A stretch of 64,000 nucleotides of DNA, taken from the NCBI GenBank assembly GCA_039189765.1, contig JBCCYL010000002.1, forward strand, positions 1 through 64,000. The letters run 5' to 3'. Both the position numbers and the translations under genes were made by a program. Positions 3,776 to 44,268 of the stretch are shown piece after piece (positions within the stretch are counted from its first letter, which is position 1; the number at the start of each line of letters is the position of its first letter). The DNA is from Cyanobacteria bacterium P01_F01_bin.150. GTDB lineage: Bacteria > Cyanobacteriota > Cyanobacteriia > CAKZMO01. The notes below the pieces were generated by a model. That model saw only the letters and a list, made by a program, of their open reading frames with translations, was not told where the DNA came from and ran no database searches.

Positions 3776-3799
3776 CTAGTTCTTGCACAGACCCTAAGT

Positions 3800-3847
3800 A
3801 AGCAATGGGGGGTTGAGACAAGAAGTTGCCTCAACCCCCCATTGCTT
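3800..3847. terminator. Probable bidirectional intrinsic terminator
   Basis: 18-bp perfect inverted repeat AAGCAATGGGGGGTTGAG / CTCAACCCCCCATTGCTT between convergent genes, about 25 nt after the pnp stop. Confidence 0.75.
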
Positions 3848-3949
3848 GTTTGGAATTTGGCCACAAGCCTTGGAGCGTAGGGGGGCTACCTATTAATGCG
3901 GATATTGCTCCTTTAAGTTGAAACAGCTTATTCGTTCTGAGACTATGAA

Positions 3950-28832: not shown

Positions 28833-29055
28833 CTAAGAACGGGAACTCTTATAATGACCACCTCGATTTATGTAGGATAGCTTGTCTGACCTGCTAAATC
28901 CCCTTCATTACCTGTCAGTTGATACTGTCTTCACAGTTGACGCATCTTTTAATCTTAGTGCGATGTTTGGGATACTCGGTGGCTAACAATATTGGTTGAA
29001 TAATCGCTCTACAAGTTAAGCTTATATCCAATTTTCTGAACTATTATTTAACGCC

Positions 29056-30036
29056 ATGCGACGAGGATTTACGTTAGCACGTCTGATGCCCCCATCTCCC
29101 ACTGCTAGGCTCTTTACTGCAATCGCTACCAGTATTTTGACCCTTGGTTTTACGCATACTGCCAGCGAGGCGCTGGTGTCTCGTTCTCCTGAGGGGATTA
29201 ATTTTGAGCAAAAGATCCACAGAGATATTGACCGTTTTAACTACATTGCCCAATTTAGGATCGCTCAAACTTCCGTTGAAACATATATTAATCTTGGGTT
29301 GCAGCATGTCCAGCAGGGACAGATAGAAGATGCGATCGCCGCCTTTCAACAGGCAACCCTTGCCGATCCCCAGTCAGCTCCCGCTCACTACAATTTGGGG
29401 CTTGCCCTAAGACAAAGCGGCAATCTTCAAGCTGCCGCCAATGCATTTTTTCAAGCCATTGATGCCGACCCCCTATTTGCGACCGCCTATGCTAACTTGG
29501 GTGCTGCATTGCTGGAAGGCAACAATATTGACCAAGCCCAAGACTATCTTCAATATGCCCTTAATTTGGAGCCAGAGATGGGATTAGCCCACTACAACAT
29601 GGGTTTGGTGCATAAGCAACGGGGGAATTTAAATCAGGCGATTGATGCGTTTGAACAGGCCCAGGAATTTAGCCCCAATGCCCCTGAACCCCATTACCAC
29701 TTGGGCCAAATTTATTTACAGCAGGGGGATAAAGAGGAGGCCATGGATGCCTTTGAAGAGGCGATCGCCCTTAATTCCAATTATGCTGAAGCCCATTACA
29801 GCATTGGTCGCTTACTCTATGATCAGCAAGACTTTTCAGCCGCCTTGGCCGCTTTTCGCCAGGCAACAGCGGCAGATCCCTATTACCCAAATGCTTACTA
29901 CGGGGCGGGTCTGCTACTGTTACGTCAGGGGCAGGAGGCGGATGGGCGATCGCTCCTTGAATATGCCCGTACCTTATTTGAGCGCCAAGGCAACACTCGC
30001 TGGGTGGAGCAAATTGATCAGCTATTGGCACAGTAG
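29056..30036 (+). CDS. TPR repeat protein with signal peptide
   Basis: About seven consecutive TPRs (AHYNLG, AYANLG...). Confidence 0.9.
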   Translation: MRRGFTLARLMPPSPTARLFTAIATSILTLGFTHTASEALVSRSPEGINFEQKIHRDIDRFNYIAQFRIAQTSVETYINLGLQHVQQGQIEDAIAAFQQATLADPQSAPAHYNLGLALRQSGNLQAAANAFFQAIDADPLFATAYANLGAALLEGNNIDQAQDYLQYALNLEPEMGLAHYNMGLVHKQRGNLNQAIDAFEQAQEFSPNAPEPHYHLGQIYLQQGDKEEAMDAFEEAIALNSNYAEAHYSIGRLLYDQQDFSAALAAFRQATAADPYYPNAYYGAGLLLLRQGQEADGRSLLEYARTLFERQGNTRWVEQIDQLLAQ

Positions 30037-30046
30037 TCCTTTTCTT

Positions 30047-30149
30047 GTTCCCAGCGTCTCGCTGGGAATGCTATTAAGAGACTCTGGCTCTTGATGGCTT
30101 TGGAGCCGGAGTCTCCAGGTTGGGTGCCCAGCCGGAGTCTGGGAACCAG
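30047..30149. repeat. Multi-hairpin palindromic repeat, family B copy 1
   Basis: GTTCCCAG..CTGGGAA / GAGACTCTGGCTC..GAGCCGGAGTCTC / CCCAGCCGGAGTCTGGGAACC; related copies near 37.62 kb and 41.69 kb. Confidence 0.8.
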
Positions 30150-30167
30150 ATGGCCAGGTGGGGAGAC

Positions 30168-30863
30168 TTAGGCAGGCACTTTGGCTTCTATGACACTCTT
30201 AAATAGGCGAATGCCGTCAGTGTAGCCCAGCATTGGGTCGGAAGCTCGCTCGGGGTGAGGCATCATTCCCATTACGTTTCCGGCTTGATTACAAATTCCG
30301 GCGATATTGTTGAGGGACCCGTTAGGATTTACTACAGGGGTAACGTCACCGTTGGTTGTGCAGTAGCGAAATACCACCTGCTTATTTTGCTCCAATTCCG
30401 CCAGCGTCGCTTCATCCGCAAAGTAACAGCCTTCCCCATGGGCAATGGGAATGGTAATCACTTCATTCGCCTGATACTGGTTGGTATAGGGCAAATCGGT
30501 CCGTTCAACCCGGAGTGGGAGGCGATCGCAAATAAAATGCAGGTCCCGATTCCGCACCAAGGCTCCAGGCAGTAGCCCAACTTCGGTAAGCACCTGGAAT
30601 CCATTACAAATGCCCAACACTAATTTGCCCTGATTGGCGTGTTCCACCGTCGCTTTCATCGCAGGGGAAAAACGGGCGATCGCCCCACACCGCAAGTAAT
30701 CACCATAGCTAAACCCGCCAGGGATGATAATCAAATCCACATCTGACACATCTTTTTCTTCGTGCCAAATCATTCGAGTCGGCTGATGGAGGAGGTCTCG
30801 GGTCACCATTGCGGCGTCGCGATCGCAATTGGACCCAGGAAACACAATAACGCCAATCTGCAT
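30168..30863 (-). CDS. purQ: FGAM synthase glutaminase subunit
   Basis: FPGSNCD, GGFSYGDYLR, GICNGFQ, GMMPHPER. Confidence 0.97.
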   Translation of the reverse strand: MQIGVIVFPGSNCDRDAAMVTRDLLHQPTRMIWHEEKDVSDVDLIIIPGGFSYGDYLRCGAIARFSPAMKATVEHANQGKLVLGICNGFQVLTEVGLLPGALVRNRDLHFICDRLPLRVERTDLPYTNQYQANEVITIPIAHGEGCYFADEATLAELEQNKQVVFRYCTTNGDVTPVVNPNGSLNNIAGICNQAGNVMGMMPHPERASDPMLGYTDGIRLFKSVIEAKVPA

Positions 30864-30945
30864 GGTTTTGTTCCTACTTATTTTTGTCCTTAGTTAATAT
30901 TGTCCCGACTTAGGAGCTTGCGGAAAAATAACATACCAATCTGGC

Positions 30946-31024
30946 GTAGGATGGGCAAAACGAACGTGTGCCCATCATCTAAATGTTTCGATGGGCACGT
31001 CCTATCGTCCTTTGCCCATCCTAC
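30946..31024. repeat. REP doublet (GTAG-type REPIN-like)
   Basis: GTAGGATGGGCA...TGCCCATC, then inverted GATGGGCA...TGCCCATCCTAC. Confidence 0.7.
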
Positions 31025-31053
31025 TTGCGGTATCTTATTCCTTTGCAAATCCC

Positions 31054-31359
31054 TTAATCAGCAGCCAACTCAAAACGATAGTTTTCAATCACGGGATTGG
31101 CCAGTAGCTGGTCACAAATCTGATCTAGTTTTTGACGCGCTTCAGTTTCGTCCCCCGCTGCCACATCCAGTTCTACATATTTACCAATGCGCACCTGGTC
31201 AATGCCTTCAATCCCCAGGTGTTCGACGCCTGTTTTTACGGCTGTTCCTGCGGGATCGAGAACGGAGGGACGTAAGGTAACGTAAATCTGTGCGTGATAC
31301 GTTTGCGCTTGAGAAGTTTGAGACACAGCAACCCCTATATACTTTTTGATTGCAATCAC
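31054..31359 (-). CDS. purS: FGAM synthase subunit PurS (true start probably a downstream GTG)
   Basis: LRPSVLDPAG, VRIGKYVEL, LLANPVIE. Confidence 0.95.
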   Translation of the reverse strand: MIAIKKYIGVAVSQTSQAQTYHAQIYVTLRPSVLDPAGTAVKTGVEHLGIEGIDQVRIGKYVELDVAAGDETEARQKLDQICDQLLANPVIENYRFELAAD

Positions 31360-31598
31360 GATTGCTATTCTACAGCTTCCTTTCAGTTCTATAGATCTTC
31401 AGATAAAGATTCGTGATTTGCGGTTGAGGGGGTGCGCTTCGCGCGCCCCCTCAACCACGAAACATTTTCTGAATGTCTATATGACAACGTATTGGGAATA
31501 TGGCGGGTCTTCAAAATGGCAAGAGAAGAGTCATGGCAGTCTCTGAAGATAAACGGGTAGTAAAATTGATGAGATGAGCTGCTGCTGAGACTTTAATT

Positions 31599-32015
31599 AT
31601 GCCAGCCAAAGAGCTATTTCACGACACGGTTAAGCGTGCTCTGATTAAAGACGGATGGACGATTACGGATGATCCGCTGTTCCTACGCTTTGGCAGCGTG
31701 GACATGTACGTTGATTTGGGAGCTGAACGGATTTTGGCGGCTGAGCGCAATCAAGAAAAAATTGCAGTGGAGGTCAAAAGCTTTGTGGGGCCATCTGCAA
31801 CAACTGAGTTTGATGCAGCGTTGGGGCAATTCCTGAAGTATCAGCTTGCTCTGGAAGATACGGAAAAAGATCGCCAGCTTTATCTTGCCGTCCCGATGGA
31901 CACCTATCGTGATTTTTTCTCCCTGGACCTTCCTCGGCTTTTAGTTCAACGCTATCAGGTTCGCCTTATTGTCTACGATCCAGAAGATGAGGTAATTACA
32001 AAATGGCAGAATTAA
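31599..32015 (+). CDS. xisH: XisH family protein
   Basis: MPAKELFHDTVKRALIKDGWTITDDP, VDLGAE, IAVEVKSF, ALGQF. Confidence 0.92.
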   Translation: MPAKELFHDTVKRALIKDGWTITDDPLFLRFGSVDMYVDLGAERILAAERNQEKIAVEVKSFVGPSATTEFDAALGQFLKYQLALEDTEKDRQLYLAVPMDTYRDFFSLDLPRLLVQRYQVRLIVYDPEDEVITKWQN

Positions 32016-32335
32016 GCTATCGGCAGATTGTCCAAAAACTGTTAGAGGAATATAGCAGCATTCGCTCTTTTAATGAAGAGGTTGAGGCGGAAGCTATCTT
32101 TGATGAAAAACGCGATCGCTACCAAGTTGTCCATGTCGGTTGGTCCAATAAGCACCGCGTCTATGGCTGTATTCTGCATCTCGATATCAAAGACGGCAAG
32201 ATATGGATTCAACACGATGGCACTGAAGGTGGCATCGCTAACGAGCTAGTAGAACAGGGCGTGCCCAAAACCGATATTGTGCTTGGGTTCCATTCTCCCT
32301 TTAAGCGACAATTTACCGATTTTGCGGCGGGTTGA
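32003..32335 (+). CDS. xisI: XisI family protein
   Basis: HLDIKDGKIWIQHDGTE...ELVEQGVPKTDIVLGF; overlaps xisH end. Confidence 0.92.
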   Translation: MAELSYRQIVQKLLEEYSSIRSFNEEVEAEAIFDEKRDRYQVVHVGWSNKHRVYGCILHLDIKDGKIWIQHDGTEGGIANELVEQGVPKTDIVLGFHSPFKRQFTDFAAG

Positions 32336-32369
32336 TGTTGGCGATCGCAGAAGGCATTGCTAGGGGGCC

Positions 32370-32434
32370 AGATCCCGGGGTTCTGCAAAAACGTATCGCC
32401 AAACAACAAGGATGATATTAGAACCCCGGGATCT
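32370..32434. repeat. 65-bp palindromic element A1 (15-bp arms, 35-bp spacer)
   Basis: AGATCCCGGGGTTCT-N35-AGAACCCCGGGATCT. Confidence 0.9.
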
Positions 32435-32452
32435 CTGCGTAGCTGACCATTG

Positions 32453-32770
32453 CTAGCCGATACGAACCTTCTTGGTTAACACGACCACTACTTCACCGGG
32501 CTGTCCTGAGGGAACAGGATGGCTCCAGTCATTGGGTTCTGCATAGTTGAGGACGTACAGCAGCTTAATCGTGTTTTGGACTGCGGCGATGCTGCCAAAG
32601 AGCATATGGCGCACGGGTTCGTAGTGGGGCGGCGACGATGACGACATCGTTGTACTAACGGCTACGGTATTTGCTGCATAATTCGCAATATAGCTTGAGG
32701 TATAGTTTTCAGCGTAATATCCATCACAAACTGTGGGCGTAAATACGCCCGGTTCAAAGGGTTGAAACAT
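32453..32770 (-). CDS. Conserved small cyanobacterial hypothetical protein
   Basis: EPVRHMLFGS..AVQNTIKLLYVLNYAEPNDWS pattern, recognised from a recurrent uncharacterised family. Confidence 0.7.
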   Translation of the reverse strand: MFQPFEPGVFTPTVCDGYYAENYTSSYIANYAANTVAVSTTMSSSSPPHYEPVRHMLFGSIAAVQNTIKLLYVLNYAEPNDWSHPVPSGQPGEVVVVLTKKVRIG

Positions 32771-33195
32771 GATTTCTGGTCTCCAGATATAACCATCAAT
32801 GGATAGAGACCAGAACCCAAAATCACTCAGCCACTCCGCAACTTGTGGGACAAATCAGGGTAGCTGGGCGATAATCAACCCATACCTCCGAACTGCCTAC
32901 GTCAGTTTTTGGGGTGTAGTCATCGGTGTGGTGTTCGTAGCACCCGCCGATGGCGCTAAGTCTCCTGAGTTCTGAGCCAGAGCGACGGCAAGGGGCTGAT
33001 GCGGTAAGTCACTTGGGTGTAAATTACCGATGCAGCGTTGTGCGATCGCCATAAAGACGAAAATAGGCTGATTCCTGTTCAGAGTCAAGCCTCAGAGGTG
33101 CCCGATAATCAACGCTATTTGGCAGAAATAGGCTGCTGAAGGCTGAAAAATCAGACAAAGGTAAGAGTTTTGTGGATTTTTGGGACAGTACGCCC

Positions 33196-33260
33196 AGATC
33201 CCAGGGTTCTACCCAACCTTCATTAAGATCGCCAAATTATTACCAAGAACCCTGGGATCT
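33196..33260. repeat. 65-bp palindromic element A2
   Basis: AGATCCCAGGGTTCT-N35-AGAACCCTGGGATCT, with a compensatory change in both arms. Confidence 0.9.
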
Positions 33261-33520
33261 CCCCAACGCCCTAACGCCCTAACGCCCCAACGCCCCAACC
33301 GTCCCTCTCCAAAATCTAAAATCTAAAATCCAAAATTCCAAGGGGTTCAAGAAACTCTTCGGCGCACCTACCAAGCTCCCTGAACCGTTTGTATTTTTGG
33401 ATTACGTGCGTTTCCAAACTGCCGAGGCAAGCGGAACGCATTGCAATCACTGGAACAGGTCTGGACTCTTCAGGGCACTCCCAATGAATTCCCATCCATC
33501 AGCTCTGGCATAGAAGAGTA

Positions 33521-33642
33521 CTGGGGGAGGAACAAACGAGGCGAAAGCCGATGTTGTTGTTCCTGTTGTCTGCGTCGTTCCTGTTACGGTTCGCCGAGCG
33601 GCAGTTCCTGGGATTGTTGATCCACGAACCACCCCGCAGCAG
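33521..33642 (-). ncRNA. DGR template repeat (TR), part of the DGR RNA
   Basis: 122-bp ungapped match to 35579-35700; AAC-rich; all 11 differences at TR adenines; about 180 bp downstream of the RT stop. Confidence 0.95.
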
Positions 33643-33717
33643 CAGAGGTGCCTGCCCCAGATTTAGTCTAAAGGATCTGGTTGACTGACCAAACATTGCC
33701 CCCATGCAGTTGAAACT

Positions 33718-33799
33718 GCGGCTACACAAACAAAACCCGCCTACGCAGGTTAGGAGTAGTCCATTAGTCCCTGAAGAGGGACTTTGTCTGTATAGCCGC
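33718..33799. repeat. Palindromic element between RT and TR
   Basis: GCGGCTACACAAACAAA ... TTTGTCTGTATAGCCGC outer arms with two inner hairpins. Confidence 0.65.
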
Positions 33800-33820
33800 A
33801 AATTTATTTGCCAGGGCGAA

Positions 33821-34897
33821 TTAAGCCACCCCAGACCGACGGCTACGACGAAAGACCAGGGTGGCAAAAATATCTTGGCGTAGGTGCCAGCTATCGGCAT
33901 GTTTAAGGTGGGCACCCCAGCTCTGGATCGATTGAGTTAGGGATTTGACGCTAATCCGGCGTTTTTGATAGCGGCGCTGCAATCGCTTTAGGCGTCGTCG
34001 GGCGCGACGTAGGTTTTCGTTGCGAACGCGGATTCGGTCGGGCAGAATGCGAAAGCCGACAAAGTTTGCGCCGATTGCGGTGGCAAAAAGCTGACTTTTA
34101 ATTGGGTGAATAGTAAGACGAAGCGTAGCCAAATAGTCTTCAATGGCCTGTCGGGCTTGGACAAGTTCGGCTTTGTCGTGGCTAAAAAGGGCAAAATCAT
34201 CGACATAGCGAAGATAGGCGGAAATCTTAAGCTGCTCTTGGACAAAGTGATCGAAGCCGCTGAGGTAGATATTGGCAAAGCACTGGCTGGTAAGGTTGCC
34301 GATAGGAAGACCGCGTCGCCGTTCCAAGGGCGTAAGCAGGGTATCACCTGGGAAATGGCGAATAACGGGGATTTGCTCGTTGCTGCCGTCAATAATTAGG
34401 TCAATCAGCCAGAGAGTGTCGGGGCACTTAATTTTGCGCCGCAGAAGGGTCTTGAGAATTTCGTGGTCGATGCTGGGGAAATATTTGGTGATATCGCACT
34501 GGAGTACGTAGGGATAGGAGCGGGCACAGTGGGTAAAGCGCTGGAGGGCACGATGGGTCCCAAAGCCCCAGCGGTTTGCGTAGGAGTGGTGGATAAAGCT
34601 GCGTTCAAAGATGGGCATAATCACGTTGCACAGGGCATGGTGAACCACTCGATCGCGATAGGGTGCAGCGGAAATTATGCGGGGTTTGGGTTCTTTGATT
34701 TCAAAGGTATGATACTTTCCAGGGCGGTAGGTTTTAGTTTTAAGCTGATGCTGAAGGGTGATTAAATTTTGCTCTAAATTATAGTTAAAATCTAGAACAT
34801 TATCCCTAAATCGTTTGCCTTTTTGAGCATTACGGGCAGATACAAGTAGGTTTTCAAAATCAATAACTTTAGGCCAAAGATTACCGTAACGTTTCAT
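33821..34897 (-). CDS. DGR-type reverse transcriptase
   Basis: 358 aa; MKRYGNL start, [28 protein letters not shown] (DGR-type SQ), YLRYVDDF; no intron endonuclease domain. Confidence 0.96.
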
Positions 34898-34960
34898 CTA
34901 ATTAATTTATTTTCAGTTCCAAATTTTTAATTTTTAATTCTAAATTTTTAATTTTTAATT

Positions 34961-35329
34961 CTACACTAAGCTTCCTTGATTTACCCGAGGACTCCGCTTA
35001 CGCTGTTGCTTAATCCAGCCACCAAGATCCTTGCCGATAGTGTTGATTAATTCTCCAGCATGCTGATAACGATCTATTTTGATTAACTCAAAATCTAAAA
35101 GCAGGCGGGTTTGATGCCGAATCACGTCTAGCTTTGAGTTTAGAGCTTCAAGCCGTTCCAGTTTTTGGGTCGCATATCGGGCATAAATCAGCTCTTCTAA
35201 AAGATCGTAGAGATTAGAGGCCATCCGCTCTCCTAACATAAATTTATGCTGTTTGGGAAGACGATTAAGAATGGGAACGTACCATTTAATCAGGTCGTAG
35301 GTTTTCTGGATAATGGGCAAGTCTTGCAT
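34961..35329 (-). CDS. avd: DGR accessory variability determinant Avd (four-helix bundle)
   Basis: 122 aa; LPIIQKTYDLIKWY..LPKQHKFMLG...IGKDLGGWIK; directly upstream of the RT. Confidence 0.93.
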   Translation of the reverse strand: MQDLPIIQKTYDLIKWYVPILNRLPKQHKFMLGERMASNLYDLLEELIYARYATQKLERLEALNSKLDVIRHQTRLLLDFELIKIDRYQHAGELINTIGKDLGGWIKQQRKRSPRVNQGSLV

Positions 35330-35471
35330 TTATATGTGTACCGCCAAAAAAGATCACGTTTTATAAAGATTCAGTATTTCACAAAATAGAATACGGTACT
35401 ATTAAGTGGGAGACAGATATTTTTTAAGGAGTGTGCTGCACAATAGAGCTAATTTTAAAAAAGTAATTTGA

Positions 35472-35573
35472 TTTCACTTTGTGAAAGCTTCGCTAACGCG
35501 CGTAGCGCGAAAAAAAGAGTAAAAATTAGCCCAAGAGCAAAGGGCAAAAAGGCAAAAGAATAGAGGGCTAATT
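35472..35573 (-). promoter_or_regulatory. Hairpin cluster 3' of VR1 (candidate DGR target-recognition elements)
   Basis: AATTAGCCC/GGGCTAATT inverted repeat (35524-35573), CGCGC-GTA-GCGCG (35497-35509), TTTCAC-TTT-GTGAAA (35472-35486). Confidence 0.55.
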
Positions 35574-37545
35574 AAGTCCTGGGGGAGGAACAAACGAGGC
35601 GAAAGCCGATGACGTCGTCCCAGTCGACTGCGTCGTTCCTGTTACGGTTCGCCGAGCGGCAGTACCAGGGATAGTTGACCCACGAACCACCCCGCAGCAG
35701 GCGACGGGTGGACTCTCCTGTTGTCCAAGCACTACCGTCTTTTGGAGCATTGTCGTAATTGTCATGCCAACGGTCTTCGCACCATTCCCAGACGTTGCCA
35801 TGCATATCGTAAAGGCCAAAGGCATTGGGCGGAAAGCTGCCGACTGGCATTGTTTTTTTCCGATATTCGCCTTCCGGGCCGTTGCCGTAGGTGTAGTTGG
35901 CGTCGTAATTGGCGATCGCCGTCGTCAACGTTGGCCCAAAATGAAATGGAGTCGTTGTTCCAGCCCGACAGGCATATTCCCATTCCGCTTCACTGGGTAG
36001 TCGATAGTTTTGGCCGAGGGGCGATAGTTTATTTAATCCTTCGAGGAAGGCGATCGCATCATCCCATGACACTTGTTCAACGGGGCGATCGCTCCCCTTG
36101 AATCCTGAAGGATTTTCACCCATTACGGCTTCATATACTGCCTGGGTCACCACAACCTTGCCCATATAAAAACTGGGCACCGTCACCCGATGAATCGGTT
36201 TTTCTGAATCATACTCATTAGACCCCATATCAAACGAACCACCCTTAATGTGCACCATATCAAAGGTGATGCCATTTCCTAAATCTTCGGTGAAATACTG
36301 AGCCTCCTTAGAAATTTTCTCAATAATTTTTCCCTTATCGTTTACCCGCACCGTTTCAAATGGAACCGTTAAGAGTGGTGATTGTGCGGTTGGTTGGGGC
36401 TTTGGTGAAGAAATCGGTGGTGGTGGCGTTGGAGCCTTTGCAACGGGAGAGAGTTGTGTCGGTGGTTGAGGCTTTGGGGAAGAAATGGTTGGTGCAGGCG
36501 TTGGAGCCTTTGCAACGGGAGAGAAAGGGGCGATCGCCTGTCCCTGGGGGAATCGGATTGGCTGAGGCGGCGTTGGTGCAGACGTGGCAGCAGGAGGATC
36601 AGAAGGCTTTTGCTGCGTCTCAATTGCCAAGCGCTGCTTTAGCGCCAGCGCTTTATCCTCTGCTGAACTTTCCGAACTCAATATGATTTGTTCCCACAGA
36701 TTTTTAGCCGACCCTAGATCTTGTAAAACATACTGGGCATGCAATGCATCCGCCTTAAGCTTATCAACATTGACCGTTGAAGGTGGAAGGGCAGGCTTTG
36801 GGGCTTTTTGGTCCTGAGATACAGGTAACAATAATTGCGTTGCCTTTTCCACTGGTTCTGCAATCACATAGGGGCGCTGGTTGCCAAACTTTTGGGTTAA
36901 GGTCGGTACAGTTTTCTGTAAATAGGCACTGAGTTTCCGTGCACTGCATTGGCTCGGTACACAATCTCCTCGCAGTGCATCCAATAAAGCATAGGTAAAC
37001 GCTCCGTGCTGATGCTCCTCTAGCTCATAGGACTTTTGCCCAGGACTACAGGAAAACAGCGTAATAATTCCGGCTTGTCGCACTAATTCAACGGTTTGGC
37101 TACCAATATCCTTGCCGTAGTCTGATACAACATTTCGACAAGCATCCAATACCAATACCAGGTTGCCTGCCTTACACTCCCGTAATGCTCGGACCACCTC
37201 GTCAACGGCAATGGCCGAATGAATCAAATCTTCTGGATCAGCATTGGTGGGCAACAAAAAATCTCGCCCTTGCTGTCGTCCGCCATGACCGCTAAAAAAG
37301 AGCCAAAAGCTATCGTTTCGTCCCAAACGAACTTTAGAGGAAATTGAGCGAAGGCCTCGTCTTAAATTAACTAGCTCAGGGTGTTGATGCTGGGATTGAT
37401 CGGAGTAGCGCAAGACTTCTTCAAAACCAATGTCCTGAAGGTAATTTTGCATGGCGATCGCATCATTCTCAGCAAATTGTAGATCCCTCAGATCGTCAAG
37501 CTGATAATGATTAACGCCGATAGTAAGGGCAACGTTTCTAGCCAT
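35572..37545 (-). CDS. DGR target: caspase-like (C14) peptidase + Pro-rich linker + FGE-sulfatase/CLec domain
   Basis: FSGHG and LDACR catalytic dyad; RLPSEAEWEYACRAG, NAFGLYDMHGNVWEWC, RGGSW...GFRLV; last 40 codons form the VR. Confidence 0.93.
   Translation of the reverse strand: MARNVALTIGVNHYQLDDLRDLQFAENDAIAMQNYLQDIGFEEVLRYSDQSQHQHPELVNLRRGLRSISSKVRLGRNDSFWLFFSGHGGRQQGRDFLLPTNADPEDLIHSAIAVDEVVRALRECKAGNLVLVLDACRNVVSDYGKDIGSQTVELVRQAGIITLFSCSPGQKSYELEEHQHGAFTYALLDALRGDCVPSQCSARKLSAYLQKTVPTLTQKFGNQRPYVIAEPVEKATQLLLPVSQDQKAPKPALPPSTVNVDKLKADALHAQYVLQDLGSAKNLWEQIILSSESSAEDKALALKQRLAIETQQKPSDPPAATSAPTPPQPIRFPQGQAIAPFSPVAKAPTPAPTISSPKPQPPTQLSPVAKAPTPPPPISSPKPQPTAQSPLLTVPFETVRVNDKGKIIEKISKEAQYFTEDLGNGITFDMVHIKGGSFDMGSNEYDSEKPIHRVTVPSFYMGKVVVTQAVYEAVMGENPSGFKGSDRPVEQVSWDDAIAFLEGLNKLSPLGQNYRLPSEAEWEYACRAGTTTPFHFGPTLTTAIANYDANYTYGNGPEGEYRKKTMPVGSFPPNAFGLYDMHGNVWEWCEDRWHDNYDNAPKDGSAWTTGESTRRLLRGGSWVNYPWYCRSANRNRNDAVDWDDVIGFRLVCSSPRT
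35579..35700 (-). repeat. DGR variable repeat VR1 including IMH end
   Basis: Adenine-specific differences from TR; ends a few bases before the target stop codon. Confidence 0.95.
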
Positions 37546-37581
37546 ATCGATTTAATTCAACAGTCTCTCAATTTCCCTCTT

Positions 37582-37722
37582 CCCTAGTGCCCAGACTCCC
37601 TAGTGCCCAGACTCCCTGGTGCCCAGACTCTGGCTGGGTGCATCAAAGGGAGACTCTGGCTCCCCAGCCTCACCTGAGCCAGAGTCTCAGGTGAGGGTTC
37701 CCAGCCGGAGTCTGGGAACCAG
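37582..37722. repeat. Family B palindromic repeat copy 2, preceded by 16-bp tandem CCTRGTGCCCAGACTC x3
   Basis: CCCAGACTCTGGCTGGG / GAGACTCTGGCTC..GAGCCAGAGTCTC / CCCAGCCGGAGTCTGGGAACC. Confidence 0.8.
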
Positions 37723-37731
37723 GAGAGGGGC

Positions 37732-38136
37732 TTAGGGTTGACGTTCTGGCTTGCTTTCTGGCTTGCCAAACTTAAGGGTAATCGCGCCAGTGGCCCCCGC
37801 TTGGGTCCCGCCAATTCCCATTAGGCTTACCTTTCCCTCCGCACTAATCTGTACAGATAATTCAACCTCCTTCAGTTCCATTCCGGCTAAATCTCCCGCA
37901 TCCTTTTTGGCCTGCCCCAAGGCATTGCCCATGCTTTTCATCAGCCGGGTCAGCTCCCGCTGAATCGTCTGAGCCGACACCTGCACCGGACCAATGCCCT
38001 TACTAGCATCTGTCCCACCGGAACGAGGCGTATTGGATATTGCATCACTCAGAATCCCCTTACTTGGAGCCTCTGCACCCTCTCCACTTGGAGTATAAGT
38101 AATTAACGAAATCGTCTCATCTGACAGGTCTGCCAT
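37732..38136 (-). CDS. Pepco/Trypco-like peptidase-co-occurring small protein
   Basis: Helix followed by LKEVELSVQISAEGKVSLMG..G..GAITLKF pattern; AGGAG RBS; directly upstream of the caspase gene. Confidence 0.7.
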   Translation of the reverse strand: MADLSDETISLITYTPSGEGAEAPSKGILSDAISNTPRSGGTDASKGIGPVQVSAQTIQRELTRLMKSMGNALGQAKKDAGDLAGMELKEVELSVQISAEGKVSLMGIGGTQAGATGAITLKFGKPESKPERQP

Positions 38137-38156
38137 GGGGGGTCTCCTTATTACTA

Positions 38157-38296
38157 CAAAAACGTGTGTCTATTTTGTCACAGGAGTTTAGCACAGCCTA
38201 AATTATTCACAAAAGTCTTCCACCCATGCAAAGATCCCGGGGTTCTAATATCATCGTCGGGATAACCCAACACGTTTCGACAGAACCCCGGGATCT
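38157..38296. repeat. Direct repeat copy 1, including 65-bp element A3 at 38232-38296
   Basis: 81/90 identity of 38157-38246 to 40117-40206; A3 = AGATCCCGGGGTTCT-N35-AGAACCCCGGGATCT. Confidence 0.9.
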
Positions 38297-38373
38297 GGCA
38301 CTGACCTTACTCCTAGAATCTAGAGGGATTCTAAAAATTCCTCAATCCAAAATCTAAAATCTAGAATCTAAAA

Positions 38374-40086
38374 TCAAATAGTTCTGGGGGAAGAACAGAC
38401 AAGGCGAAAGCCGAGGGCATAGTACCTGAGACCTGCATCGAGCCTGTGGCGGTTCGCTGAGCGGCAGAATCTGGGAATTTCCAACCACGCTCCCCCTCGC
38501 ATCCCGCGCAGGGTTGTATCTCCTGTTGTCCAGCTACTACCGTCACTTGGCGCATTGTCATAATTGTCATGCCAACGGTCTTCGCACCATTCCCAGACGT
38601 TGCCGTGCATATCGTAAAGGCCAAAGGCATTGGGCGGAAAACTGCCGACTGGTGTAGTTTTGTTTTGGTCTTTTCCTTTTGGCGCGTTGCCATAGGTGCC
38701 GCTACCGTCGTGGTTGGCGATCGCAGACGTTAATGTCGCCCCAAAATGAAACGGAGTCGTCGTTCCAGCTCGACAAGCATATTCCCATTCGGCTTCGCTG
38801 GGCAGTCGATAGTTTTGGCCAATAAGAGAATAGTCCTTGTTAAGGGCTTTGCAGAAGGCGATCGCATCATTCCATGCCACTTGTTTGACGGGGCGATTCT
38901 CATCTTGAGAGGCTTCGCCAACGCTTCCTTGAAAATTTGAGGGATTTTTACCCATTACGGCCTCATATACCGCCTGCGTCACCGTCACCATTCCCATAAA
39001 AAACGACGGCACACTTACCAAATGCTGTGGACCTTCATCGTTTCCGCGTTGCGCTTCATCAGGCGGTGAACCCATCGTAAAATCGCCACCTGGAATTTGC
39101 ACCATTGTAAACGTCACTCCATTGCTCAGGTTCTCCGTAAACCCATCCACTGTGACTGGATAGCGATTAGTAATATCGCCCCGGTCATTCGTTGGTCCGG
39201 CACTGGGCGATCGCTCCAGCAGTTGTAGCCACTCCGCCATTGACTGGGGACGATACTCCGGCTGAATCGCCATTCCCTTCATAATTGCCGCATTAACCCG
39301 GTCACTAATCGCCACATTCTTTTCCTGGGGCGGTACTAAATCATCGGGACGGGACTCCGCTAAGCTCACCCGTCGAGACAAGGATAGGGGCGGCACCTCG
39401 CCTGTTACCAAGGAATACAGCGTTGCGGCTAGGGCATAGACATCCGTAAATGCCCCTCGCTTGGCATGGGGCTGATACTGTTCCACCGGAGCATAACCAT
39501 CGGTCAAAAAGGGCGTATGTCTGCGGGTTAGGCTGGGGGTAAACTCACGGGCAATGCCAAAATCAATCAGCACCGCCTTGTCCGTCTCCTGCCGTACCAT
39601 AATATTGTTGGGCTTGATATCCCGATGCAGCAGCCCCTGACCATGCACGACCGATAGCGCTTGGCCCACTTGCTGGATATATCGTAGGGCATTAGCTTCA
39701 GTCAGCCTGCCCTTTGTACTAACCATCTCCGCTAAATCGACGCCATCGATGCACTCCATCACCATACAGGTCAGCCGCAGATATTTAGACAGAGTATTAC
39801 CTGGGTTGGGGTGGCACACCTTTTCTGTAAAAAAGCAGTGGACCTTAACAATATGAGGATGCTGACAGCCCCGAATCCTCAGGGCCTCGTTCATAAAATC
39901 ATCCTGAAAACTATCAAAGTCCGAGCGGATTTGGACCTCATCATTCAGGGTTTTAATCACCACCTCACCATAGTCCTGACTGGTGGCCAAATAGGTAATA
40001 CCAAAGCCCCCAACGCCCAGGACTTTTTTAATTCGATAGTTGCCCTCTTGTAGCCGTTGTCCTGGGGTCCATGCCATTCTAATCAA
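38374..40086 (-). CDS. Ser/Thr protein kinase + FGE-sulfatase/CLec domain with VR-like C-terminus (start probably ATG at 40077)
   Basis: LGVGGFG, VVIK, HRDIKPNN, DFG, TDVYAL; CLec motifs as in the caspase target; ends GFRLVCSSPRTI. Confidence 0.92.
   Translation of the reverse strand: MIRMAWTPGQRLQEGNYRIKKVLGVGGFGITYLATSQDYGEVVIKTLNDEVQIRSDFDSFQDDFMNEALRIRGCQHPHIVKVHCFFTEKVCHPNPGNTLSKYLRLTCMVMECIDGVDLAEMVSTKGRLTEANALRYIQQVGQALSVVHGQGLLHRDIKPNNIMVRQETDKAVLIDFGIAREFTPSLTRRHTPFLTDGYAPVEQYQPHAKRGAFTDVYALAATLYSLVTGEVPPLSLSRRVSLAESRPDDLVPPQEKNVAISDRVNAAIMKGMAIQPEYRPQSMAEWLQLLERSPSAGPTNDRGDITNRYPVTVDGFTENLSNGVTFTMVQIPGGDFTMGSPPDEAQRGNDEGPQHLVSVPSFFMGMVTVTQAVYEAVMGKNPSNFQGSVGEASQDENRPVKQVAWNDAIAFCKALNKDYSLIGQNYRLPSEAEWEYACRAGTTTPFHFGATLTSAIANHDGSGTYGNAPKGKDQNKTTPVGSFPPNAFGLYDMHGNVWEWCEDRWHDNYDNAPSDGSSWTTGDTTLRGMRGGAWLEIPRFCRSANRHRLDAGLRYYALGFRLVCSSPRTI
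38384..38505 (-). repeat. Diverged VR-like region (VR2)
   Basis: Ungapped alignment to TR with about 34 mismatches, about 16 at TR adenines. Confidence 0.7.
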
Positions 40087-40116
40087 CTATCCAGCAATGA
40101 TGAGTTAGAAACGTAT

Positions 40117-40286
40117 CAAAAACGTGTGTCTATTTTGCCACAGGGTTTTAACACCGCCTAAATTATTCACAAAAATCTTCCACCCAAGCAAAGATTCCAG
40201 GGTTCTCTCGAAATGTCTCAAAGATCCCGGGGTTCTAATATTATCGTTGGGATGTCCCACAACGTTTCTACAGAACCCTGGGATCT
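40117..40286. repeat. Direct repeat copy 2, including element A4 at 40222-40286 and an extra arm at 40192-40206
   Basis: Homologous to 38157-38296 with a 30-bp insertion that duplicates the left arm. Confidence 0.9.
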
Positions 40287-40540
40287 CGCACCGACCAGCC
40301 ACTTTTGCAAAACCCCGGAACAAGCATCATCAAAAGTTAGATTACAGAGAGAAAGCATGGCAGTCAGAACAAGAAGTTATCTCAGCAATTGCTCTTGCGT
40401 TGGTTATCAAGGCTGTAATATGGGTCTCTGCGATAAATTCGCATAGATCAGCGCGTTAGACATCAGCTTGTCAAACAACAGGCATTATTGGCTCAAATCA
40501 ACTTTCAATCAACAGGCAAACATAAGGAGAGAGACGTTCA

Positions 40541-41665
40541 ATGGCTGCGGTAAAGAAGTCAGAAAATGTACCAAAAACGATGCAAGAGAAATACGACGCC
40601 ATTGTGGCGATTACCAATGAGTTCTCGAAAAAGCATCTAAACGAGGAATACGCTCAGCTTATTCGATTTGCCACCGCAGCCCTATGTCGAAAACGCCCAT
40701 CTCCCCTCGAAAAAGGCCGAGATAAAACCTGGGCCTGTGGCATCACCCATGCTGTAGGAATGACCAACTTTTTGTTTGATTCCTCCCAAACTCCCCATAT
40801 CAGGGCCAAAGAGCTGTACAAAGCCTTTGGCGTCGGAGAGAGCACGGGCCAGTCTAAATCAAAACAGGTGCGCGATACGTTAAAGATGCGCCAGATGGAT
40901 CACAACTGGTGCTTACCCAGCAGGATGGGAGATAGTCCATCAATCTGGATGATTTCGGTCAACGGCTATATTATGGATGCTCGCTCTGCCCCCAGGGAAA
41001 TCCAAGAAGTCGCCCTAGCACAAGGGCTGATTCCTTATCTCCCAGGCAAAGACGGTAAACCATTGGAGGAAGAATCAAAACTAGAACCAGAAGCATCTAC
41101 TACAGAAAAGTCAGGTGCAAAGTCATCTAAGCAATCTTCCAAGCAGTCATCTAAGCAATCTTCTAAGAAATCCTCCAAGCAATCTTCTAAATCAACCTCT
41201 AAACAGTCTGCCGATACTCTTTACGTTTTAGAAGTTGGCATTATTTCTGGGCCTGTCACTGAAGCGTTTATTAAAAAGAACCCGGAAATCAGCCGCGTTA
41301 TCGAAATTAAGGGCAGCAACACATTAAAAGATTTGCATCGAGCTATCTTCAGCGCCTTCGACCGAGAAGAGGAGCATATGTATGAATTTCAAATCGGTGG
41401 ACGAGGGCCAAATGATCCCAATGCACGACGGTATGGCATCAAGCCCCCATTTGATGATGAGGTGCCCGCAGGGTACGTCTCTAAAACCACAATGGACTCA
41501 TTGCAATTATCAGAAGATGAGGCTTTTGGGTATTGGTTTGATTTTGGCGATGATTGGTGGCATCAGATTAATGTTTTAACGATTCAGGATCAAGTACCCA
41601 AAGGAAAATATCCCAAAGTAACTAAGCGGGTAGGGGACAGTCCTCCCCAATATCCAGACCTTTAG
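40541..41665 (+). CDS. Two-domain protein: DUF6398-like N-terminus + pRiA4b ORF-3-like C-terminus
   Basis: LCRKRPSPL..G...WACG..HA; TLKDLHRAIF..FD...HMYEF and YWFDFGDDWWHQI; SSKQ repeat linker; AAGGAG RBS. Confidence 0.75.
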   Translation: MAAVKKSENVPKTMQEKYDAIVAITNEFSKKHLNEEYAQLIRFATAALCRKRPSPLEKGRDKTWACGITHAVGMTNFLFDSSQTPHIRAKELYKAFGVGESTGQSKSKQVRDTLKMRQMDHNWCLPSRMGDSPSIWMISVNGYIMDARSAPREIQEVALAQGLIPYLPGKDGKPLEEESKLEPEASTTEKSGAKSSKQSSKQSSKQSSKKSSKQSSKSTSKQSADTLYVLEVGIISGPVTEAFIKKNPEISRVIEIKGSNTLKDLHRAIFSAFDREEEHMYEFQIGGRGPNDPNARRYGIKPPFDDEVPAGYVSKTTMDSLQLSEDEAFGYWFDFGDDWWHQINVLTIQDQVPKGKYPKVTKRVGDSPPQYPDL

Positions 41666-41693
41666 GGCGGACGTATACAGAGACTGTCCTCTC

Positions 41694-41737
41694 GTTCCCA
41701 GACTCTGGCTGGGAATGCCCTCCTGAGACTCTGGCTC
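41694..41737. repeat. Truncated family B repeat copy 3
   Basis: GTTCCCAGACTCTGGCTGGGAATG...GAGACTCTGGCTC, followed by GTAG-type REP-like hairpins. Confidence 0.7.
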
Positions 41738-41874
41738 AGTTACGTAGGGTGCGTGACAACGCACCTTCGCGTGCTGATATATACTCTCGTTCCTCTCTTT
41801 CCCAGGACGGAGGGTTGATGATGTCGGAAAGTAGCCTCGCGTAGGGTGCATTGCCTATACGACTTCGCGACTTT

Positions 41875-44268
41875 TCAGACATCTGCGCTATCGTCCAAAT
41901 CGGATTCGTCATTATCTTCTAAACGAGTTTCTTCGTTATCGTTCAAATCGGGTTCTTCATTATCTTCTAAACGAGTTTCTTCATTATCTTCTAAACGAGT
42001 TTCTTCGCTATCGTCTAAATCGGGTTCTTCGCTGTTTTCCAAATTAGGCTCCTGGCTGTTGTCCTGATCTGGTTCTTCGTCGTCTTCTAGGTCTAGGTCA
42101 ATTTTGCCCATTTCAATCAAAAGTTCCTTAACCCGCTCTCGAATCCGAAGATGGCGTTCCACATCTTCAAACGCGTAGCGATTGTAGCCATTGCGCTCAA
42201 TCAGTCGCTCCAAATTTCTGATTCGTTCAGGGGTATCAGGGTGGGTGGATAACCAGTCGAAACGACTGCTATTTCCCGACTCATCCAATAGAGTTTGCAT
42301 CAAATTGCGCAGTCCATCGGCAGCATAGGGTGAAGACGCCAAAAGACGAGTGCCCAATCGGTCCGCTTGCCTCTCCATATCTCGGCTATAGCGAAGTACG
42401 GTGAGATTGGTCACCAATCCGCCATAGGGAACCGCCTGGAGCACATTTGCAGTCAGATTTCCCCGCGTCACCTGCTGAAAGCCGTGGGACAAAATCGCAT
42501 GGGCCAACTCATGGGCAATCAGTCCCGCCAGCTCCGCCCCCGTGTCCGTGCGGGTAATTGCACCCGCATTGATAAAGATTTTGCCACCAGGCAGGGCAAA
42601 AGCATTAAGTTCATCCTCCGCCACGACGTAGAATTCGTACTCAAACTCGGTTCGTCCCCCTAGTTCAGCCAGATCTTGGCCAATGTCGTTGACGTAGTCC
42701 AGCACCACTTCATCTTCAATCATATCCAGCTCATCGCGGGCATTACTGGCGATTCGTTCCCCGACTGCGGACTCGCCCCGAATCATCAAGACGGTTGTTT
42801 CCAACGCAGATAAGGGACCAAACCAGCTGCCTGTAAAGGCAAATCCCGCAGCTCCAGCGATCGCGTTCCCAATCGCAGTACGGGTTAACCGCCGCCGCAT
42901 CTTTCTACGGAATCGATCCTGATATTCATCTGCCTGGACTTGAAAAGCCTCAGCGTCAGGATGGTCCGGCTCCAGCAATGCAAACTGACGGGAGGCGATC
43001 GCCGCCTGTAGCCATTGCTCATCTGCCACCAGTGCGTCCACCCGTGTCGTTGCCAATTCAGGATTATCCGGATATAGAGCAGTAGCTTGTTCCAACACTT
43101 CCAGTGCTTCGTCAATTTCGTCGGCATTCACCAACACCTGAGCATAGGCCATATGCCCAGGAATAAACTCCGGCTGCTGTTCTCGCAGTAACGCCAAAGG
43201 AATGCGAGTTCGGGTATCGAGACCGGCTTCTAGTCCAGCTTGATATTCCCGCCAATAAACTGCTCCGGCGGGGGAAAGCTGCTCTGGGTCAGAAAACCCT
43301 TCCTGTCGCTCAAACGTCCCCTCTTCATGGAATGGGTCTTTGGCCTGGCGGTAGAGTTCTTCTGCCTCTGCAAATTTTCCTTCGAGGAACAGGCGATCGC
43401 CCTCAATCAATAGTCGCTGTCGCTCCAATTCTTCAGCAGTGAGTTCTTCAGCTTCTTCGTCATCCTCTGTAGTCGTCGTATCTTCTGTGGTCGTATCTTC
43501 TGTAGCCGCATCATTAGACTGGCCCTCGAGCCCAGTAGTCTCTGCGCGTTCACCTTCGAGTTCCTCTTCAGAACCTTGATTGGTTTCAAGCTCTGAATCG
43601 TTAGTCTGCTCTCCGCTAATCTGCTCTTCACCACTATTTTGGGGGGCAGTTGTTTCTTCTAATGTTTGGGTTTTAGCATCTATATCATCAGCGCTGCTCG
43701 CTTCATCTTCTTCAGTAAGGAGGTCTATATTTATATCTGCATCTGCATCTGCATCTGTTTCGGCGTTATCCGTACGGTCTGCTGCCGTAGTGTCAGTACC
43801 TGAAGGGGCAAGATCTGTGGATTCATTTTCAGGTGAATTACTACCCACTGCATCAGACTCTGGTAGGTCAGAGTCTGCTAGGTCAGGATCTGCCTGATGA
43901 TTGTCTATTGGTGATGTGGGGTCTGCCGATTCGGTTGTTTCTTGACTGTCTGCATCTGGCGACCTTTCTGGAAATACCCCTCCATCGGGGATTGTTTGAG
44001 GCGTGACATCTTGAGGCGTGACAGGTGTTACCGTAGGCACAACCTGCCCCATAAGCTCTTCTACAGTTGTCTGTAAGGATAGGTCCTCAGCAGGAAAAGA
44101 GGTAATAGGAAAGGTCTCGACAGTATTTTGAGGCGTGACAGGCTCTTTGGCCAACTTCAAAGATTCAGACGGAAGAGCAAGCGTTTCCGCTGCCATAAAC
44201 AGGGCAAGTCCCCCATAAAAAACACCGCTGCCGACTACTGTCATCAAGTGAAGTACGATTCTGTTCAT
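41875..44268 (-). CDS. M48 family metallopeptidase with TPR region and acidic terminal extensions
   Basis: NAFALPGG, AHELAH (HExxH), YSRDMERQAD, STHP; C-terminal 8-aa repeats such as LEDNEETR. Confidence 0.9.
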   Translation of the reverse strand: MNRIVLHLMTVVGSGVFYGGLALFMAAETLALPSESLKLAKEPVTPQNTVETFPITSFPAEDLSLQTTVEELMGQVVPTVTPVTPQDVTPQTIPDGGVFPERSPDADSQETTESADPTSPIDNHQADPDLADSDLPESDAVGSNSPENESTDLAPSGTDTTAADRTDNAETDADADADINIDLLTEEDEASSADDIDAKTQTLEETTAPQNSGEEQISGEQTNDSELETNQGSEEELEGERAETTGLEGQSNDAATEDTTTEDTTTTEDDEEAEELTAEELERQRLLIEGDRLFLEGKFAEAEELYRQAKDPFHEEGTFERQEGFSDPEQLSPAGAVYWREYQAGLEAGLDTRTRIPLALLREQQPEFIPGHMAYAQVLVNADEIDEALEVLEQATALYPDNPELATTRVDALVADEQWLQAAIASRQFALLEPDHPDAEAFQVQADEYQDRFRRKMRRRLTRTAIGNAIAGAAGFAFTGSWFGPLSALETTVLMIRGESAVGERIASNARDELDMIEDEVVLDYVNDIGQDLAELGGRTEFEYEFYVVAEDELNAFALPGGKIFINAGAITRTDTGAELAGLIAHELAHAILSHGFQQVTRGNLTANVLQAVPYGGLVTNLTVLRYSRDMERQADRLGTRLLASSPYAADGLRNLMQTLLDESGNSSRFDWLSTHPDTPERIRNLERLIERNGYNRYAFEDVERHLRIRERVKELLIEMGKIDLDLEDDEEPDQDNSQEPNLENSEEPDLDDSEETRLEDNEETRLEDNEEPDLNDNEETRLEDNDESDLDDSADV

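Follow-up and report, generated by a model that had tools for sequence, protein, structure and literature searches.

The stretch analyzed here (the window) comprises 64,000 nucleotides (nt) of contig JBCCYL010000002.1, from the 10.6-Mb metagenome-assembled genome (MAG) of Cyanobacteria bacterium P01_F01_bin.150. Between positions 33521 and 37545 and in the adjoining flanks lie, in this order and all on the minus strand, a gene for a small Pepco protein, a target gene encoding a caspase fused to an FGE-sulfatase/C-type-lectin (CLec) domain and ending in a variable region (VR1), the gene avd, a reverse transcriptase (RT) gene, a template repeat (TR), and a structured spacer RNA (Table 1). We conclude with high confidence that these parts form a complete diversity-generating retroelement (DGR) of the cyanobacterial RT clade, which very probably acted recently and is probably still active. 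A first-pass annotation had already called a DGR at this locus, and that call is borne out by an RT nearest to Brt of phage BPP-1, by the model score of Avd, by TR/VR1 mismatches confined to adenines, by the 3'-terminal position of VR1 in an FGE/CLec coding region, and by cyanobacterial relatives of like layout.

The TR/VR1 pair, the RT, and Avd

The TR and VR1 lie 2058 nt apart throughout their alignment, which spans 122 nt and has 11 mismatches and no gaps. Every mismatch falls on a TR adenine (33621, 33615, 33609, 33606, 33569, 33567, 33564, 33561, 33558, 33555, and 33554), none of the 93 non-adenine sites differs, and the probability that 11 of 11 mismatches would hit adenines by chance is 2.5e-8 (hypergeometric). 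This re-alignment confirms the ungapped 122-bp pairing with adenine-only mismatches described in the first-pass annotation. Read in frame, the TR gives ..WINNPRNCRSANRNRNDADNRNNNIGF.. and VR1 gives ..WVNYPWYCRSANRNRNDAVDWDDVIGF.., which reproduces the translations reported earlier (WINNPRNC..DADNRNNNIGF for the TR and WVNYPWYC..DAVDWDDVIGF for VR1). The TR adenines are distributed over 10 AAY, 3 AGG, 2 GAC, and 2 ATC codons and a single silent GCA codon. Seventeen codons are able to change amino acid and none can become a stop, in agreement with the earlier census, and the number of possible proteins is about 4e15. The full 122 nt contain 29 adenines; the earlier figure of 28, given for the TR core, is obtained by excluding the A at 33522.

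Homology between the two repeats reaches its 5' limit at 33642/35700. At the 3' limit, a T in the TR (33520) stands against a G in VR1 (35578), followed by ACT in both and then by no similarity, so that the pair diverges at a non-adenine base, as had been claimed. This T/G difference, which resembles that between IMH* and IMH (initiation of mutagenic homing), is also found in a paralogous DGR of the same genome (DGR2, described below), and position 33520 falls within the predicted template-primer duplex. Downstream of the target gene lies a GC-rich hairpin (Table 1), which may serve as a target-site element or as a terminator; in 7 of the 10 VR flanks that were folded, a similar short GC hairpin was discerned by eye.

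The RT and avd genes are intact open reading frames (ORFs), and the RT motifs are present as originally described. A PDB search with the RT returned 8ub7_A as the best match (E = 5e-50), followed by group II intron RTs (3e-19 and 5e-15) and retron-type RTs (4e-14), which places 8ub7_A ahead of these classes by about 30 orders of magnitude. The matched chain was identified as BPP-1 Brt by a search with the annotated brt of NC_005357. The two proteins are 33% identical over 340 aligned positions, that is, over the full length (E = 2e-58), with IGNLTSQ aligned to IGSLTSQ and YVDD to YMDD. The NCBIfam models for group II intron, retron, and Drt enzymes all scored the RT far under their cutoffs. 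The similarity searches favor BPP-1 Brt over the RTs of group II introns and retrons, an affinity with which would, according to the first-pass annotation, have refuted the DGR call. The product of avd matched the NCBIfam equivalog model NF033474 (DivGenRetAVD) with 136 bits against a cutoff of 80 and is 23% identical to BPP-1 Avd (E = 6e-7); a sequence search of the PDB with Avd gave no match at E values up to 0.01. A third RT is encoded elsewhere in the genome (G000 contig C68, 20770-21525); it is 25% identical to the DGR RT, and no Avd or TR match accompanies it.

The relatives of the RT belong to cyanobacterial DGRs that share this layout and are 57 to 74% identical to it. Their hosts are Synechococcales, Leptolyngbyaceae, Elainellaceae, Microcoleus, Cuspidothrix, and Alkalinema, plus one Thiomargarita MAG, and adenine-biased TR/VR pairs were found in 6 of 11 related loci. 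Among 30 other genomes sampled around the source genome, 7 encode an RT of similar type (5 of 16 within the same family), and the distribution is therefore patchy. No orthologous locus suitable for comparing VR alleles was found among these 30 genomes, because the best RT relative (77% identical) is as distant as the paralogue within the source genome. Further signs of a cyanobacterial host are XisH and XisI genes near the DGR and 69 octamers of highly iterated palindrome 1 (HIP1), a marker of cyanobacteria, in the window, against about 1 expected.

The in-genome paralogue, DGR2, is 78% identical to the present element in its RT, 74% in avd, and 85% in its TR (TR2), and its target is likewise a caspase-FGE protein of 657 amino acids (aa). 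The TR/VR pair of DGR2 has 12 mismatches, all at adenines. Two genes upstream of the DGR2 target (137 and 214 aa) gave no Pfam match at E values up to 1.

Adjoining the Pepco gene is a gene for a kinase-FGE paralogue, whose 3' end holds a second sequence alignable to the TR (VR2). VR2 aligns without gaps, and its differences are enriched at TR adenines (16 of 29 A sites against 18 of 93 non-A sites; Fisher p = 6e-4). One relative (L021) has two adenine-biased VRs for a single TR. These observations would fit a two-target DGR in which the kinase-FGE gene is a second live target of the present TR. However, we consider this very improbable. Besides its 18 non-adenine mismatches, VR2 carries three further mismatches in the conserved 3' segment and an A at the boundary where VR1 has G, no GC hairpin follows it, and its divergence at non-adenine sites (19%) is no different from that of the adjoining paralogous DNA (80% identity across 300 nt). 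On the 18 non-adenine mismatches, VR2 was ruled out as a live second target. No better-matching TR for VR2 was found anywhere in the genome. VR2 is best read as a former or ancestral VR that has since drifted, a decayed orphan that forms part of the context of the DGR and is not a current target. Paralogues of CLec genes with graded similarity to the TR are noted in the available text of Vallota-Eastman et al. (PMC7517822).

Table 1. Features of the DGR locus and its paralogues, in window coordinates except where another contig is named
Feature	Position	Strand	Description and basis
Pepco gene	37732..38136	minus	134 aa, K/P/E-rich C-terminal tail; PF24393 Pepco, 78.6 bits against cutoff of 27
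Target gene	35572..37545	minus	657 aa; N-terminal caspase (Peptidase_C14), Pro/Ala-rich repeat linker, C-terminal FGE-sulfatase/CLec domain; Pfam
VR1	35579..35700	minus	Variable region, last 42 codons of target; ungapped match to TR
GC-rich hairpin	35497..35509	minus	CGCGC-TAC-GCGCG, 63 nt downstream of target stop, after pyrimidine-rich tract; DNA folds
avd	34961..35329	minus	Accessory variability determinant, 122 aa; Pfam bAvd, 79 bits against cutoff of 40
RT	33821..34897	minus	DGR reverse transcriptase, 358 aa, IGNLTSQ and YVDD; Pfam RVT_1, E = 2e-21
146-nt repeat	33674..33819	minus	Dispersed (MITE-like) repeat, 2 nt after RT stop; alignment with DGR2
Stop duplex	33651..33658 with 33452-33459	minus	Brackets TR; 5' arm GGGGCAGG, 3' arm CCTGTTCC
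TR	33521..33642	minus	Template repeat; 29 adenines in 122 nt
Spacer RNA	33348..33520	minus	Structured RNA 3' of TR; 12-locus alignment, RNAalifold
P1	33513-33519 (+G33521) with 33465-33471 (+C33463)		TR 3' end ACTCTTC with GAAGAGT..C
P2	33481-33502		9-bp hairpin, GGGA loop
P3	33443-33450 with 33399-33405		Loop with 32-nt insert specific to the present copy
A-rich single strand	33386-33397
P4	33348-33382
Kinase-FGE gene	38374..40086	minus	Ser/Thr-kinase plus FGE/CLec paralogue, 570 aa, next gene upstream of Pepco; Pfam Pkinase and FGE-sulfatase
VR2	38380-38505	minus	3' end of kinase-FGE gene; ungapped alignment to TR
DGR2	G000 contig C48: 28681-32434 (L023: 4681-8434)		Paralogous cassette; TR2 28681-28803, RT 28841-29899, avd 29932-30276, target 30461-32434

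The TR-spacer RNA and a scheme for retrohoming

Twelve aligned loci, namely, the present element, DGR2 of the same genome, and ten related loci, share a conserved sequence 3' of the TR. From this alignment RNAalifold predicted 39 pairs, 25 of them with compensatory changes. In the spacer structure, 94.6% of cells pair, compared with 81% in shuffles (0 of 500 reach the observed value) and 29 to 45% in slid controls. The predicted duplex that brackets the TR keeps 8 core pairs in all 12 loci, 4 of them with compensatory changes, and over the 12 pairs tested, 83.8% of cells pair, compared with 28 to 55% in slid controls. A scan of positions 30000 to 42000 against Rfam returned no match at E values up to 1, and the spacer RNA therefore belongs to no curated Rfam family. 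RNA elements of this kind are described for BPP-1 in the available text of Handa and colleagues (10.1101/2023.10.23.563531), which reports them in 207 of 278 Avd-containing DGRs; in Cyanobacteriota they include conserved "stop" duplexes as well as Avd-binding stem-loops of 9 bp with GNRA caps. The elements mapped here are a confirmation of that work and not a discovery.

In the scheme that we propose for retrohoming, a transcript that comprises the TR, preceded by a short 5' arm and followed by the 173-nt spacer, would fold as predicted, the fold itself being supported by covariation. The spacer strand GAAGAGTCC would pair with the TR 3' end (ACTCTTC plus G33521), and this pairing would position RT-Avd for self-primed cDNA synthesis next to P1, starting at about G33521 or A33522. 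Because synthesis would start there, T33520 would never be copied, and VR1 would keep its G. The RT would then copy the TR with misincorporation opposite adenines, and synthesis would end at the 33651-33658/33452-33459 duplex, 8 nt beyond the TR. Replacement of VR1 by the cDNA could rewrite up to 17 codons in the ligand-binding tip of the lectin fold, opening the roughly 4e15 stop-free proteins that the TR can specify.

Activity and the insertion between RT and TR

The RT stop codon and the TR are separated by 178 nt in this element and by 38 nt in DGR2, the difference being a 146-nt dispersed repeat that resembles a miniature inverted-repeat transposable element (MITE). The repeat is absent from DGR2 and from the relatives, in which the RT stop lies about 17 to 40 nt from the TR elements. 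It has 45 blastn matches in the genome, 23 of which extend over at least 80% of its full length. Because the repeat begins 2 nt past the stop codon of the RT and does not reach the 5' arm of the stop duplex, it leaves the RT ORF and the RNA core untouched. A terminator-like hairpin (33751-33734) lies within it. In the region as a whole, 8 terminator-like matches were found against 6.8 expected from shuffles, a number not above chance.

Recent or ongoing activity of the element is, in our assessment, probable. The first-pass annotation had suggested recent activity from the absence of non-adenine drift; that absence stands, and the accompanying question of variation in the population was covered in part, on metagenome contigs of run X1. 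This run is a marine metagenome in which 0.86 of the sampled words were present, and its Logan contigs, not raw reads, were compared over positions 33300 to 37700. A 1875-nt contig matched 33733-35607 exactly (depth, 35), another matched 35679-35785 (depth, 34), and a 2620-nt contig matched 35971-37700 (depth, 44.5). The contigs of the organism, at depths of 35 to 45, stop at 35607 and resume at 35679, and the gap (35608-35678) is the variable core of VR1. The sole X1 piece across this core is a 130-nt contig (35579-35708; depth, 3.96) with 14 differences, at least five of which, the five listed, fall at sites equivalent to TR adenines (35615, 35619, 35622, 35627, and 35636). Three of these five bases are neither that of the TR nor that of the reference VR1, and the 130-nt contig is therefore neither the TR nor the reference allele. 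At TR position 33573, by comparison, the depth was 53.6 and no variant was recorded. This contig pattern is what a multi-allelic VR would produce. Runs X2 and X3 contained next to none of the sampled words; X2 yielded low-depth pieces of the same or a near organism, none of them across VR1. Among the sequencing runs listed as containing this stretch, none was an RNA run.

Several points tell against current activity or soften the case for it. The 146-nt repeat is the main structural reason for doubt, and with its terminator-like hairpin it could reduce TR transcription if the TR relies on read-through from avd-RT. The evidence for activity comes from contigs and not from raw reads, contigs drop rare variants, and 5 of the 14 differences in the 130-nt contig are listed. 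X1 may be the source sample of the assembly and so is perhaps not independent. The X1 contigs also break inside the TR (33549/33576), and a contig break alone is weak evidence, because the sharing of words between TR and VR breaks contigs there too. Finally, we infer the priming site and the stop function of the retrohoming scheme by analogy to BPP-1.

These points lead to an alternative in which the locus is a genuine DGR that is now silent. The adenine-only pattern would then be a relic that predates the insertion, and the insertion would have uncoupled the TR-spacer RNA from its promoter or would terminate its transcription. Such a history is suggested by the repeat being present in this element and missing from DGR2 and the relatives with their short RT-to-TR distances, and by the hairpin inside it. 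We nevertheless regard silencing as unlikely, since the TR and VR1 show zero non-adenine differences in 122 nt, all ORFs and RNA elements are intact, including the 5' arm of the stop duplex, which the insertion leaves on the same side as the TR, and terminator-like matches are no commoner than in shuffles. In addition, X1 contains a separate VR1 variant in which TR-adenine sites carry bases found in neither the TR nor the reference, and the X1 contigs break at the variable core.

Target function and comparison with known systems

The target protein combines a caspase domain (PF00656; E = 6e-27; residues 3-229) with an FGE domain (PF03781; E = 1.7e-55; residues 429-651 of 657), and VR1 lies at the 3' end of the gene. 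Its translation contains the motifs SGHG and DACR, which we take to be the caspase catalytic dyad. The Pepco gene is directly upstream, and the caspase-FGE gene begins 187 nt downstream of it on the same strand. The same five-part cassette (Pepco, caspase-FGE with VR, avd, RT, and TR) is found in L012 and L014, two of the six related loci with enough upstream DNA. Other loci differ in their targets, with an AAA ATPase and a large FGE target in L019 and L021 and FGE-only targets in L016 and L018. The L016 locus, from an Elainellaceae MAG, has a different order over positions 2267-5061, where a TR-like A-rich copy (2267-2393) precedes the FGE-only target (VR at 3249-3375), followed by avd and RT; a second FGE gene on the opposite strand has a partial TR match at 5237-5292.

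The diversified FGE/CLec domain is most likely a variable ligand or antigen sensor that controls the fused caspase, and the caspase substrate is likely the adjacent Pepco pore-forming toxin, which would make the pair a hypervariable sensor-executioner defense module. This reading draws on published systems. In the available text of a 2025 preprint (PMC12642450), Pepco is a pre-assembled beta-barrel pore toxin of antiviral systems, activated when the adjacent protease removes its C-terminal tail, and FGE domains are among the sensors fused to Pepco-associated proteases. Kaur et al. (2020) and Dore et al. (2024; PMC10907252), as far as their available texts go, associate FGE/CLec domains diversified by DGRs with conflict systems that employ caspases or trypsins as effectors and Trypco proteins as adaptors, and the latter argue that targets of the cyanobacterial clade are antigen sensors of such systems. 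We tentatively propose, with somewhat less than even confidence, that the five-part cassette is a self-contained, self-diversifying immune receptor. The DGR would continually rewrite the lectin-fold tip of the caspase sensor, and binding of a phage or other foreign ligand would cause the caspase to cut the tail of the pre-assembled Pepco barrel, leading to cell death.

A different role was favored by Vallota-Eastman et al. (2020; PMC7517822), who, in the available text, describe orthocaspase- and kinase-CLec targets in cyanobacteria and propose a signaling or regulatory function for them. Under this alternative, the diversified caspase-FGE protein would be a regulatory or signal-transduction component tuning proteolytic signaling, differentiation, or homeostasis, and not an anti-phage sensor that triggers Pepco-mediated death. 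The kinase-FGE paralogue that adjoins the cassette would suit such a role, and no phage ligand is known. It also tells against the immune reading that we infer both the cleavage of Pepco by the caspase and the defense role by analogy, including analogy to the Streptomyces Pepco system. However, the regulatory alternative strikes us as rather doubtful, given that in this locus, as in L012 and L014, the gene immediately preceding the caspase target encodes Pepco, and given the published characterizations of Pepco as a protease-activated pore toxin (PMC12642450) and of cyanobacterial-clade targets as antigen sensors (PMC10907252).

If the immune-receptor proposal is true, the cassette, which occurs in at least three genomes (the present one, L012, and L014), would offer a compact and portable system in which to test anticipatory immunity in bacteria. 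The natural insertion of the 146-nt repeat would then also indicate that the TR-spacer RNA can function when it is not tightly coupled to the RT gene. The locus could also serve as a small experimental system for asking whether DGR-diversified intracellular sensors act in phage defense and which protease activates Pepco in caspase-linked modules. It provides a clean, fully annotated cyanobacterial DGR, with the protein parts, the TR and VR, and the RNA control elements mapped to the base, in a minimal context of Pepco and caspase sensor.

Several further features were recorded in the window around the DGR. A 78-nt palindromic MITE-like element with ends GATCCCGGGGTTCT and AGAACCCCGGGATC occurs at 38229-38306, 40219-40296, and 32367-32437 and has 23 copies in the genome. 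Copies lie upstream of both the Pepco gene and the kinase-FGE gene, inside a duplicated upstream region of about 150 nt (38157-38306 and 40117-40296, 87 to 90% match). Genes for XisH and XisI (PF08814 and PF08869) are found at 31599-32335, about 1.2 kb past the end of the spacer RNA. On the other side, a protein with DUF6398 and PRiA4_ORF3 (plasmid pRiA4b ORF-3-like) domains is encoded on the plus strand at 40541-41665, adjoining the kinase-FGE gene, and positions 41875-44268 encode an M48 peptidase-TPR protein and include 24-nt tandem repeats. Short tandem heptamer-like repeats of the TTTTAGA and AATTTTT types flank the DGR genes in intergenic DNA (33300-33345, 34900-34960, and 38330-38375) and look like typical cyanobacterial short tandem repeat DNA.

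The prototype DGR, that of Bordetella phage BPP-1 (mtd-avd-TR-brt), resembles the present element in its full-length RT homology, its Avd homologue, the adenine-only differences between TR and VR, and the location of the VR at the 3' end of a target with the C-type-lectin fold. According to the available text of 10.1101/2023.10.23.563531, the two also have in common a structured spacer that follows the TR and base-pairs with its 3' end, as well as a duplex enclosing the TR. They differ in gene order, which is target-avd-RT-TR-spacer here and target-avd-TR-spacer-RT in BPP-1. Moreover, the element described here is a chromosomal, cellular one with an intracellular-type caspase fusion as its target and a 146-nt repeat between RT and TR, whereas BPP-1 is a phage whose target is a tail fiber.

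The closest counterparts are the cyanobacterial DGRs with kinase- or orthocaspase-CLec targets, described in the available texts of PMC7517822 and PMC10907252. Host, target architecture (N-terminal orthocaspase and C-terminal CLec domain), CLec paralogues with graded TR similarity, and duplicate close RTs within one genome (78% identical here) are common to both, and we found no difference of kind. Judging from its relatives, the RT appears to belong to clade 5E of Dore et al. (2024; PMC10907252). The first-pass annotation was correct in stating that cyanobacterial DGRs of this type were already known; within the available literature, those with orthocaspase-CLec targets, their RNA elements, and links between Pepco or Trypco and proteases are all published. 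The system is a further member of this published class and involves no novel mechanism, and its only unusual features are the Pepco-caspase context and the natural insertion between RT and TR.

With respect to that context, the arrangement matches Pepco-protease death-effector modules, namely, SsPepco-SsAvs4 of Streptomyces (available text of PMC12642450) and the Trypco/Pepco adaptors of Kaur et al. (2020), in that a small Pepco gene lies immediately upstream of a sensor-bearing protease. The protease is a caspase here, whereas Avs4 is trypsin-like, and the cleavage rule given in PMC12642450 (after a conserved Ile) is stated for serine-protease partners. A DGR link is mentioned in the available text of that preprint for EACC1 modules and not for Pepco. 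Unlike the sensor of the Streptomyces Pepco modules, the sensor of the present cassette is one that is probably rewritten by a DGR.

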